Shown piece after piece: positions 10,851 to 19,710 of a stretch of 19,804 nt of DNA; position 1 is the first letter of the stretch; each line of letters begins with the position of its first letter. A model generated the notes under the pieces. It was not told where the DNA came from, did not search any database, and worked only from the letters and a program-made list of their open reading frames with translations. The stretch is from the IMG/VR virus record IMGVR_UViG_2648501400_000003; one strand, given 5' to 3'. This DNA is from a virus (Duplodnaviria; Heunggongvirae; Uroviricota; Caudoviricetes). Both the position numbers and the translations under genes were made by a program.

Positions 10851-11188
10851 CGCGGGAAATGCAGTTTGTCATGCGGCTTGCCCGGGAGTTCCGGCGGGCA
10901 GACTGGCGGCGGATGCTGTCGGAAATGTCGGCCACTGAGCTTGGTGAGTGGGGCGATTATTTCCGGATGCAGAGCTTCAGTGATGTGTGGATGGATGCGC
11001 AGTTTGCCTCGCTGAAGGCATTGATCGTGAGAATGGTGTCCGGCAGCAGTGATGCTGCGGTGGCTGATTTCAGCCTTTTACCGGAAGAGAACGGGATACC
11101 GGAGCGAACGGACGAAGAACTGATGCATCTTGGGGAAGGTATTTCCGGAGGTGTGCGTTATGGACCAGATAGCCAACCTGGTCATTGA
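10461..11188 (+). CDS. T: Tail assembly chaperone G-T fusion, made by -1 programmed frameshift near the end of G (T part 10826-11188)
   Basis: The T ORF is in the -1 frame relative to G and open from 10826, overlapping the last 22 nt of G, as in lambda G/T. Candidate slip site G GAA AAG at 10838-10844 (lambda has G GGA AAG). Confidence 0.6.
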
Positions 11189-14100
11189 TTTGGGGATTGA
11201 TGCGGCAGAGTTTAAAAATGAAATTCCCCGTATCAAAAACCTTCTGAATGGTGCAGCCAGCGATGCAGAACGGTCTTCTGCCCGTATGCAGCGTTTTATG
11301 GAGCGTCAGACTCAGGCCGCCAGGCAGACAACGCAGGCGGCTTCTTCGGCTGCAACAGCCGCATCCGTCCATGCGCAGACGGTGGAGAAGAACGCACAGG
11401 CTCATGAACGCATGGCCCGCGAGGTGGAGAAAACCCGCCAGCGCATGGAGGCACTGAGCCAGAAAATGCGCGAGGAACAGGCGCAGGCCATGGCTCTGGC
11501 GGAGGCTCAGGATAAAGCGGCTGCTGCGTTTTATCGTCAGATTGACAGTGTGAAACAGGCCAGTGCGGGGCTACAGGAATTACAGCGTATTCAGCAGCAG
11601 ATCCGACAGGCCAGAAACAGTGGCGGGATTGGCCAGCAGGATTATCTGGCGCTGATTTCTGAGGTTACTGCGAAAACCCGTGTTCTTACACAGGCTGAGG
11701 AAGAGGCTACCCGACAGAAAGTGGCGTTTATCCGTCAGCTTAAAGAGCAGGCAACCCGCCAGAATCTTTCATCTTCTGAGTTGCTTCGTGCCAGGGCAGC
11801 CCAGCTAGGGGTAAGCAGTGCTGCAGAAGTGTATATCCGCAAAATGGAGCAGGCAGGAAAAGCCACGCATTCGCTGGGTCTGAAAAGTGCAGCAGCCCGC
11901 CAGGAGATAGGCGTTCTGATAGGTGAACTGGCCCGTGGCAATTTAGGAGCGCTGAGGGGATCCGGGATAACGCTGGCTAACCGTGCCGGATGGATAGACA
12001 CACTGATGTCACCGAAAGGCATGATGCCAGGAGCGGTTATTGGCGGTATTGCCGCGGCCGTCTATGGTCTGGGTAAAGCCTGGTATGACGGTCAGAAGGA
12101 GGGGGAAGAATTTAACCGCCAGCTATCACTGACGGGGCATTATGCCGGAGTCACTGCCGGGCAGCTGTGGACGCTCAGTCGTGCTATTTCCGGGAATGGT
12201 ATCACGCAACATGCTGCAGCCGGTGCGCTGGCTCAGGTGGTGGGGAGTGGTGCATTTCGTGGAAACGATATCGGTATGGTGGCGAGAGCTGCCGCACAGA
12301 TGGAGCGATCGGTTGGCCAGTCGGTCAGCGATACCATAAATCAGTTTAAGCGGCTGAAGGATGATCCTGTAAATGCCGCGAAGGCTCTGGACAATGAGCT
12401 GCATTTTCTTACTGCCACTCAGCTTGAGCAGATACGCGTCCTTGGGGATCAGGGGCGGTCCAGTGATGCGGCACGGATAGCCATGTCTGCACTGGCAGAG
12501 GAAACCGGTCGGCGTACTGCGGATATTGATAATAACCTCAATGCGCTGGGCAGTACGCTGAAGTATCTGTCTGATTTATGGAGTCGTTTCTGGGATGCGG
12601 CCATGAATATTGGTCGTGAAGACTCGCTGGATGAACAGATTGCCGCTTTACAGGAGAAAGTGTCGCGGGCGAAAAGACTCCCCTGGACGGCATCATCTTC
12701 TCAGGTTGAATACGATCAGCAGCGTCTTAACGATCTTCAGGAGAAAAAACGCCAGAAGGATTTGCAGGATGCAAAAGAGCAGGCAGAGCGGAATTATCAG
12801 GAGCAACAGAAACGCCGTAATGCTGAAAATGCTGCACTGAACCGGATGAATGAAACGGAAGCAGCACGACATCAGCGTGAAATTGCGCGTATTAATGCCA
12901 TGCAGTACGCCGATCAGGCTGTCAGGGATGCGGCGATACAACGTGAAAATGAACGTTACGAGAAAGCCCTGGCATCCGGTAAGAAAAAAACACGCGAAAC
13001 CCGTAATGATGAGGCCACCCGGTTATTGCTGCAGTACAGTCAGCAACAGGCACAGGTGGAAGGACAGATTGCTGCTGCCAGACAGTCAGCAGGCATTGCC
13101 ACGGAAAGGATGACAGAAGCGCATAAACAGCTTCTGGCTCTGCAGCAGCGCATCAGCGACCTGGACGGGAAAAAACTGACGGCAGATGAAAAGAGTGTGC
13201 TGGCCAGTAAAGATGAACTGATTCAGGCACTGACGCTGCTGGATGTAAAACAGCAGGAGCTTCAGAAACAGACGGCACTCAACGATCTGAAGAAAAAAAC
13301 AATTCAGCTGACCAGTCAACTGGCTGAAGAAGAGCGCGCTCAGCGTCAGCAACATGACCTGGATATCGCCACGGTGGGTATGGGTGATCAGCAGCGGCAG
13401 CGATATCAGGTACAACTGAGTCTTCGCCAGAAATACCAGCAACAGCTGGAGCAGTTGAGGCGGGATAGTGAGCAGAAAGGGACATATAACACGGATGACT
13501 ACAGAAAGGCCGAGCAGGCGCTGACGGAGAGCCTGAACCGACAACTGAATGAGAATCGCCGTTACTGGCAACAGCTTGAAATTGCTCAGGGTAACTGGAA
13601 AAACGGTGCCATGCGGGCGTTTCAGAATTTCACGGCAGATGCGGATAATGCGGCAGGCACTGCTGAGCAGATGCTTACAGCGGCATTTAACAGTGCTGGT
13701 AATGCACTGGCGACCTTCTGTACCACCGGAAAACTGAACTTCAAATCTTTTACCGCCTCACTCCTTTCCGATCTGGCAAAAATTATGGCGCAGATGGCCA
13801 TGATGCAGGCGGTGAAGGGGATTGGTTCGGCGTTTGGCTGGGGGAGTGCTGCCGCTGCCAGTGTGACGCCCAATGCTGATGGTGGCGTTTATCAGTCGGC
13901 TGATTTGAGTCGCTACAGCGGCACGGTGGTTAACCGACCGACGTTTTTTGCTTTTGCAAAAGGCGCGGGTGTGATGGGGGAAGCGGGACCTGAAGCCATT
14001 CTGCCACTGCGCCGTGGTGCTGACGGTAAGCTGGGGGTTGTGGCAAATATTGGTGGTTCAGGTATGGCGATGTTTGAGCAGAATAACCATGTGGTGATTA

Positions 14101-19600: not shown

Positions 19601-19710
19601 ATATCAGTGGCAGTGTGAATGCGAACGCCGGGACGCTCAACAACGTCACGGTAAATGAAAACTGTACGATTAAGGGCATGCTGGAGGCGACTCAGGTCAG
19701 AGGTGACTAG
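16636..19710 (+). CDS. J: Tail tip/host specificity protein J, 3'-truncated by IS2 insertion (1024 of about 1132 codons; C-terminal receptor-binding region lost)
   Basis: Starts [20 protein letters not shown]... as in lambda J, with GAGAGGA SD. Spacing from I matches lambda. The ORF ends at a TAG (19708-19710) that is the first three bases of the IS2 end. By collinearity with lambda the native stop would be about 324 nt further on. Confidence 0.9.

Follow-up and report, generated by a model that had tools for sequence, protein, structure and literature searches.

In the tail tip of phage lambda, residues 1-807 of J are the tip-embedded part of the protein, and a three-helix bundle of gpH (residues 818-849) is seated on the gpI trimer within the lumen of the tip (PMC10721106; PMC12617516). 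Mosaics between diverged sequences are produced by lambda Red and, less efficiently, by RecA, and intragenic patches of about 100 bp are often exchanged (PMC3945230; PMC2327257). We analyzed the IMG/VR record IMGVR_UViG_2648501400_000003, a stretch of 19,804 nucleotides (nt) from a virus of the Caudoviricetes, with a focus on its tape-measure gene H and on the tail tip genes M, L, K, I and J that follow it. Judged by alignment, H is chimaeric: up to about codon 970 it is of the type found in phage cdtI, and its last 53 to 55 or so codons are a lambda-type allele.

The whole stretch, hereafter called the window, covers 19.8 kb and is the late region of a lambdoid prophage. It opens with Rz-like lysis and Rha-like genes, continues with the terminase and a head with a ClpP-protease/capsid fusion, and then reaches the tail genes. 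A megablast search of 50,697 phage records gave cdtI as the top match (96.8% over 89% of the window); phi458, Tritos, mEp460 and Ayreon came next. With blastn, cdtI (NC_009514) aligns in one piece from 1463 to 19708 (95.4% nt identity over 18.2 kb), as does phi458 from 2291 to 19708 (95.7% over 17.4 kb). Such a collinear structural region of high identity is that of the cdtI/mEp460-like lambdoid phages, and on sequence grounds the window is a member of the already sequenced cdtI/mEp460/phi458 group. No complete E. coli genome was found to be identical to it, the closest being at about 97%.

A recombination boundary inside the tape-measure gene

The gene H (11160-14234) encodes 1024 amino acids (aa), against 853 in lambda. 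This length had already been given in a sequence-only reading of the window, which also placed a recombination boundary in the 3' part of the gene, left roughly 50 lambda-type codons downstream of it, and proposed a nucleotide comparison with lambda (NC_001416). That comparison located the breakpoint. Blastn returned no lambda match between 10121 and 14068, and then a single collinear block in which positions 14069-19132 correspond to lambda 12938-18002 (94.0% identity over 5.06 kb, 5 gaps). Beyond this block, a further match at 79% covers 19302-19689. Upstream, the tail genes Z, U and V have weak nucleotide similarity to lambda (60-77%), with 50%, 53% and 54% identity at the protein level, and none was found for G, T or the body of H.

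The position of the switch is sharp. In a four-way alignment the window tracks phi458 and cdtI until ...GGTATGGCGATGTTTG, and it equals lambda from ...AGCAGAATAACC onward. The last informative site of phi458 type is at 14071 and the first of lambda type at 14077. To the left of the crossover, 16 sites are of lambda type and 205 of phi458 type, against 48 and 10 to its right (Fisher P = 5e-30), so that the step in identity is backed by informative sites, as in a mosaic junction. The switch falls at codon 970 of 1024, which corresponds to codon 799 of 853 in lambda and lies 55 codons before the stop, and the reading frame of H is uninterrupted across it. The alignments thus support a recombination boundary, relative to lambda, in the 3' part of H and pin it to 5 nt (Table 1), where the earlier prediction had put it. 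Uniform identity across the tail region to some other single phage, which would speak against such a boundary, was seen only with members of the same recombinant lineage, and the junction stands.

One could suppose that no recombination took place and that strong purifying selection kept the 3' end of H lambda-like, as the C-terminal core of the protein is indeed conserved across types. We regard this as extremely improbable. The identity to lambda amounts to 99.4% of nucleotides, synonymous sites included, next to unalignable sequence; over the same 166 nt the window is 25-31% different from phi458 and cdtI, which match it at 98% upstream; and the three-way pattern of informative sites contradicts it.

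Inside the lambda-type segment, a stretch of about 44 nt (14103-14146, of which 29 nt are invariant), encoding NDGTNGQIGPAALK, is near-identical in the H genes of lambda, the window, phi458 and cdtI, between flanks that have diverged, and may be a place where crossovers recur.

Table 1. Features of the tail region of the window and their closest comparisons (positions in the window; nt, nucleotide identity; aa, amino acid identity or length; UViGs, uncultivated virus genomes; L008-L010, contig handles).
Feature	Position	Strand	Comparison or content
G-like tail assembly chaperone gene	10461..10850	+	129 aa; 33% aa identity to lambda G
T-like reading frame, -1 frame, overlapping the end of G	10826..11188	+	38% aa identity to lambda T
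H body, cdtI/mEp460-type, codons 1-970	11160..14071	+	98-100% nt identity to phi458, cdtI, GPEC389 and UViGs
Crossover interval, GTTTG common to both parental H types	14072..14076	+	alignment and informative sites
Lambda-type H 3' end, last ~53 codons	14077..14234	+	99.4% nt lambda, 75% phi458, 69% cdtI
M, distal tail protein, 109 aa	14231..14560	+	94% aa and 96.0% nt to lambda; 97.9% nt to phi458; 61% nt to cdtI
L, tail tip hub protein, 232 aa	14560..15258	+	94% aa identity to lambda L
K, JAB and NlpC/P60 tail assembly protein, 247 aa	15263..16006	+	Pfam Prok-JAB 6-98, NLPC_P60 111-224
I, tail tip plug protein, 223 aa	15904..16575	+	98% aa identity to lambda I
J codons 1-832, central fibre part embedded in the tip	16636..19131	+	93.9-94.5% nt to lambda, phi458, cdtI, GPEC389 and L009 alike
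J codons 833-1024, phi458/cdtI-type distal part	19132..19707	+	98.4% nt phi458, 97.0% cdtI, 79% lambda
IS3-family insertion sequence terminus in J	19708..19804	+	multi-copy match; first bases TAG are the J stop (19708-19710)

The junction in relatives of the window

The relatives differ in where the common sequence begins. In phi458, H is of cdtI type until about 13 codons before its stop and is followed by a lambda-type M. Phages cdtI and Ayreon have an M of their own (about 61% nt identity), join the common sequence inside L and carry a different I allele. The prophage of E. coli GPEC389 has its junction exactly where the window has it; its alleles change from about 14670, in L, where nucleotide identity drops from 99-100% to about 93%, and its I allele is not that of the window. 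By these alignments, the boundary between a shared tip and a diverged shaft lies in the same neighbourhood in all relatives, at differing points.

We then searched for the junction itself. When a 381-nt probe spanning it was run against the 50,697 phage records, none matched its full length at high identity (best 86%, of the phi458 type). Among 5426 E. coli genomes the probe had one match at 100%, in GPEC389, which was isolated from chicken, and the next reached 87%. An exact probe of 34 nt was found in 8 IMG/VR contigs and had no match in the GTDB species representatives. The junction is rare. It is inherited within a lineage and not private to the window, since the relatives are collinear and two of the IMG/VR contigs, L010 and L013, are 99-100% identical to the window from G into J (up to 19094 and 17723, respectively). 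In both of these contigs the match ends at 10463, at the start of G, and is continued to the contig end by about 95 nt of common unrelated sequence (11325-11419 in L010, 7262-7357 in L013), which hints at an inserted or deleted segment with one endpoint immediately 5' of G in these genomes.

The same searches bear on the quality of the assembly. A tip module that is multi-copy in most E. coli genomes could collapse during assembly and falsely join two co-resident lambdoid prophages. This is highly improbable here: the independent, chromosome-level assembly of GPEC389 has the same junction (100% over 381 nt), as do the 8 IMG/VR contigs; the frame of H is intact across it; and the crossover lies 5' of the repeated region, not within it.

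The tip genes are a common E. coli module

The genes M, L, K, I and J follow H in the order found in lambda. According to the sequence-only reading, their lengths, overlaps and spacing were exactly those of lambda. This holds for the lengths of M, L and I, for the overlaps (ATGA between H and M, TGATG between M and L, 103 nt between K and I) and for the 60-nt gap between I and J. It fails for J, which has 1024 codons instead of 1132 because of an insertion sequence (IS; see below), and for K, as the annotated start of lambda K (ATG at 14276) is a CTG in the window, at 15407. The protein identities of M (94%), L (94%), K (95% over 199 aa) and I (98%) are high, as befits a tip module of the lambda type. 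However, to call these proteins near-identical to those of lambda, as had been done, is an overstatement: the block averages 94% nt identity and is no nearer to lambda than to thousands of prophages.

Counted at a coverage of at least 80%, the block from L to J occurs in 4308 of the 5426 complete E. coli genomes, in a median of 3 places per genome. Nearly all records with the block (4492/4696) are at 90-95% identity to that of the window, and none in these genomes exceeds 95.3% over the whole block. When five references (lambda, phi458, cdtI, GPEC389 and Ayreon) were compared in 150-nt segments, the best one changed every 150 to 450 nt across the tip, and in most segments another phage was as close as lambda or closer. 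In M, for example, the window is slightly nearer to phi458 than to lambda. Mismatches to lambda are overdispersed, with a mean of 5.8 and a variance of 11.8 per 100 nt (variance/mean of about 2). The specifically lambda-like stretch is limited to the 3' end of H, from 14077 to about 14210, or some 140 bp. The tip genes are thus a module common across E. coli prophages, not lambda's own. The view that a tip from lambda was joined to a divergent tape measure, also drawn from the sequence alone, keeps its switch in H, but it is too simple for the rest: over most of the tip lambda is not the nearest relative of the window, and the window is collinear with known phages.

These results also weigh on a one-step swap, in which everything from the 3' end of H through J codon 832 would have come at once from lambda or a very close relative. 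The single collinear blastn block with lambda (14069-19132) and the lambda-like overlaps and spacing are what such a swap would leave. But the match to lambda varies along the block (99.4% in the H 3' end, 96% in M, 92% of nucleotides in L, 94% in J), other phages are as close or closer in most of the 150-nt segments, and no genome out of 5426 passes 95.3% over L-J. In addition, GPEC389 has the junction yet diverges from about 14670, and we found no donor with at least 99% identity over 14077-19131 together with a lambda-type H body. We consider this scenario quite unlikely.

The K gene of the window is intact. Its open reading frame (ORF) begins 4 nt past L and encodes a complete JAB domain (window 15258-15410, compared with lambda 14127-14280). 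Lambda has an extra C right after the stop of L, which puts the upstream ATG out of frame with the annotated K; because of this, the 199-aa lambda K looks N-terminally shortened beside that of the window.

Proposed origin of the junction

We propose that the junction arose by recombination between diverged (homeologous) lambdoid tail regions, with a probability of roughly 0.8. Such a pattern is the product of relaxed homologous recombination among lambdoid prophages that reside in one host. We observed the breakpoint, the patchwork of identities, the number of copies and the staggering of junctions among relatives directly, and we infer the recombination pathway and the direction of transfer. 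The tip genes and the conserved 3' end of H are present in several copies, at about 94% identity, in most E. coli genomes. These copies would continually exchange short patches, through RecA or phage Rad52-like recombinases, and the shaft genes upstream would be too diverged to recombine. Because the tip genes would exchange patches and the shaft genes could not, boundaries between shared and diverged sequence would accumulate at the 3' end of H, at a slightly different point in each phage.

Several points weigh against this proposal. To the right of the crossover the parents have good homology (the end of H and M), but to its left the sampled parents share only GTTTG, or 7 of 8 nt with the preceding GAY, and GTTTG is too short for ordinary homologous recombination. 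The left end may have been joined illegitimately or through microhomology, or the H variant that was the true parent may be missing from the sample. Moreover, transfer may have gone either way: a lambda-type patch may have entered a cdtI-type H, or phi458 and cdtI may have gained the other 3' end. Finally, the window contains no recombinase genes. Chi was considered as a cause of the breakpoint and rejected, as the window has one Chi, at 5841, no more than the number expected by chance and far from the junction.

A different explanation for the position of the boundary is selection: the last ~55 residues of H would have to match the tip proteins and would be kept together with M-L-K-I-J. The structure of lambda gives reasons to think so. 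Its gpH 818-849 three-helix bundle docks on gpI 134-222 in the tip (PMC10721106; PMC12617516), and the lambda-type segment of the window, which spans lambda H residues 799-853, includes the homologue of this helix (in 14077-14234). The block shared with lambda, from H 799-853 to J 832, closely matches the physically resolved tip complex, ending near the limit of the tip-embedded part of J (1-807). Yet the relatives show no such coupling. Phi458 combines a cdtI-type H C-terminus with a lambda-type I; in GPEC389 the H C-terminus is of lambda type and the I allele is a different one. The two C-terminal types of H are about 65% identical in amino acids, with the INNDGTNGQIGPAALK core in common. 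The C-terminal ~65 residues of gpI, which make up most of the docking region 134-222, are identical in five of the six alleles compared, and the sixth, from GPEC389, has a single conservative change from V to A. Strict co-adaptation between the H C-terminus and gpI is therefore rejected as a requirement: each H type is found with each of the I alleles, and the C-terminal end of gpI hardly varies. For the same reason (both C-terminal types occurring with both gpI alleles) the chimaeric H is probably functional. The data suggest a functional module boundary at the 3' end of H where coupling is not strict; selection as the main cause is rather unlikely, and co-adaptation is a minor contributor next to homeologous recombination.

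A stronger form of the idea, that the last ~55 residues of the tape measure are a portable tip-docking adaptor exchanged with the tip genes, is unlikely. If it were true, the 3' end of H would be a recurrent selected module boundary through which very different shafts, such as one with a 1024-aa ruler, fit a common E. coli tip, and chimaeric siphophage tails could then be designed by a simple rule.

Tape measure, G and T

The homologues of H in phi458 and GPEC389 are annotated with 3075 nt, the same length as in the window. Once the last 55 residues are set aside, 23% of 643 aligned positions are identical between this H and that of lambda (E = 1e-32). The H of the window carries the Pfam domains TMP_2 (PF06791; residues 228-426, E = 4e-49) and Tape_meas_lam_C (PF09718; 811-885, E = 6e-24), with TMP_4 at 616-693. 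Lambda H has both TMP_2 and Tape_meas_lam_C, in the same order, as is expected of a tape measure; the cdtI-type H is a distant homologue of lambda H. The additional length, some 171-174 residues, lies N-terminal to TMP_2 at roughly residues 57-227, because an offset of about 174 residues is already present at the start of this domain. The region is rich in A, Q, R and E. An internal duplication as its source was rejected, since a self-BLASTP found no repeats.

The ruler model for lambda gpH (Katsura and Hendrix) is established, at about 0.15 nm per residue. The tail tube of lambda has 31 discs and measures 132.7 nm (PMC12617516). A tail longer than that of lambda by about 26 nm, or about 6 gpV discs, is therefore a plausible prediction from the 171 extra residues. 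However, Ayreon, whose H has 1021 aa and is of the same type, reportedly has tails of about 120 nm, a rough figure from a genome announcement (PMC5764929) and the one measurement found for this H type, and this does not support a tail longer than lambda's. The paper on phi458 gives no value for tail length.

In GPEC389 the homologue of G bears the annotation gpG, and in Ayreon that of a tail chaperone. The final 25 nt of G (10826-10850) are also open in the T-like frame, and the sole candidate slippery heptamer there is G GAA AAG (10838-10844), where lambda has G GGA AAG (GGGAAAG). By analogy with lambda G-T, a -1 frameshift is a candidate here.

J and its insertion sequence

The alignment with lambda stops at 19132, within J, and the part of the protein that is present has 87% aa identity to lambda J. 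Codons 1-832 are slightly closer to contigs L008 and L010 (96-97% nt) than to the references of Table 1. The 1024 codons of J compare with 1165 aa in cdtI, of which residue 1024 is the last one matched. J therefore lacks about 141 C-terminal residues, its receptor-binding end, and is not full-length. J ends at 19710 because the terminus of an IS3-family element begins at about 19708, where the homology to cdtI and phi458 J also ends. A 99-nt query from the end of this element hits 21,685 places, spread over 4742 E. coli genomes, that adjoin unrelated genes (fimA, ABC transporter genes and others) and carry the annotation IS3 family transposase, as expected for an IS3-family element. By its terminal sequence the element is IS2-like. 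As the window stops 97 nt into the element, one of its ends is visible. Exact-match scans for the J::IS junction found nothing in the GTDB representatives or in IMG/VR. With J interrupted, this copy of the prophage is unlikely to give infectious particles and is probably defective for adsorption.

The distal segment of J is of phi458/cdtI type (97-98%) in the window, and L010, a relative that is nearly identical elsewhere, has only 84% identity to the window there. This difference over 19132-19707 is a sign that the host-range part of J took part in another exchange, separate from the rest.

Left end of the window

Three other genes lie at the left end. The Rz-like lysis gene is at 66-383. It is followed at 587-1141 by a Rha-family regulator with an ORF11CD3 domain, which cdtI and GPEC389 lack at this position. 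A DUF1441 protein (1647-2186) occupies the small-terminase position.

Comparison with known systems

Overall, this is ordinary lambdoid mosaicism in a known phage group, and its importance beyond annotation is little. It does provide a clean example of intragenic mosaicism, resolved to 5 nt, which coincides with the part of the tape measure that lies inside the tail tip, and a natural pairing of a lambda-type tip module with a much longer and highly diverged tape measure. Users of this prophage should bear in mind that its J is broken by an IS, that the arrangement of H and tip is already in public genomes, and that "lambda-like" refers here to a tip gene pool spread across E. coli.

Lambda resembles the window in its tip region: the genes are ordered, overlapped and spaced alike, nt identity is 94% over 5.06 kb, and aa identity is 94-98% in M, L, K and I. 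It differs in the body of H (23% identical, with 171 aa more in the window), in Z, U and V (50-54%), in G and T (33-38%) and in the head genes, which are unrelated at the nucleotide level. The window also has a distal J of another type, which is truncated, and a longer in-frame N-terminus in K. The lambdoid mosaicism by relaxed homologous recombination described by Martinsohn (2008) and De Paepe (2014) has the same sharp transitions, short intragenic patches and co-resident prophages as donors, but the homologies tested there were longer than the 5-8 nt of the left join in the window.

Among closer relatives, the prophage of GPEC389 (NZ_CM142810) has the identical H junction and 98-100% identity over about 1500-14650. 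Unlike the window, it has other alleles from L to J, an intact J of 1137 aa, and an additional hypothetical ORF of 339 nt between I and J (GPEC389 17739-18077) that is also missing in lambda, phi458 and cdtI. The contigs L010 and L013 match the window without a difference (100%) in G, the T ORF, the whole of H, M and I, and at 98.4-100% in L and K, with L010 differing in the distal part of J (84%). Finally, cdtI, mEp460, Ayreon, Tritos and phi458 have the same ClpP-protease/capsid fusion type of head as the window, and the cdtI group shares with it a collinear late region from terminase to J, a long tape measure (1018-1024 aa) and the distal segment of J. The group departs from the window in its cdtI-type H 3' end (the last 55 codons have 69-75% nt identity) and its intact J of 1165 aa, and cdtI and Ayreon also in having another M and another I allele.

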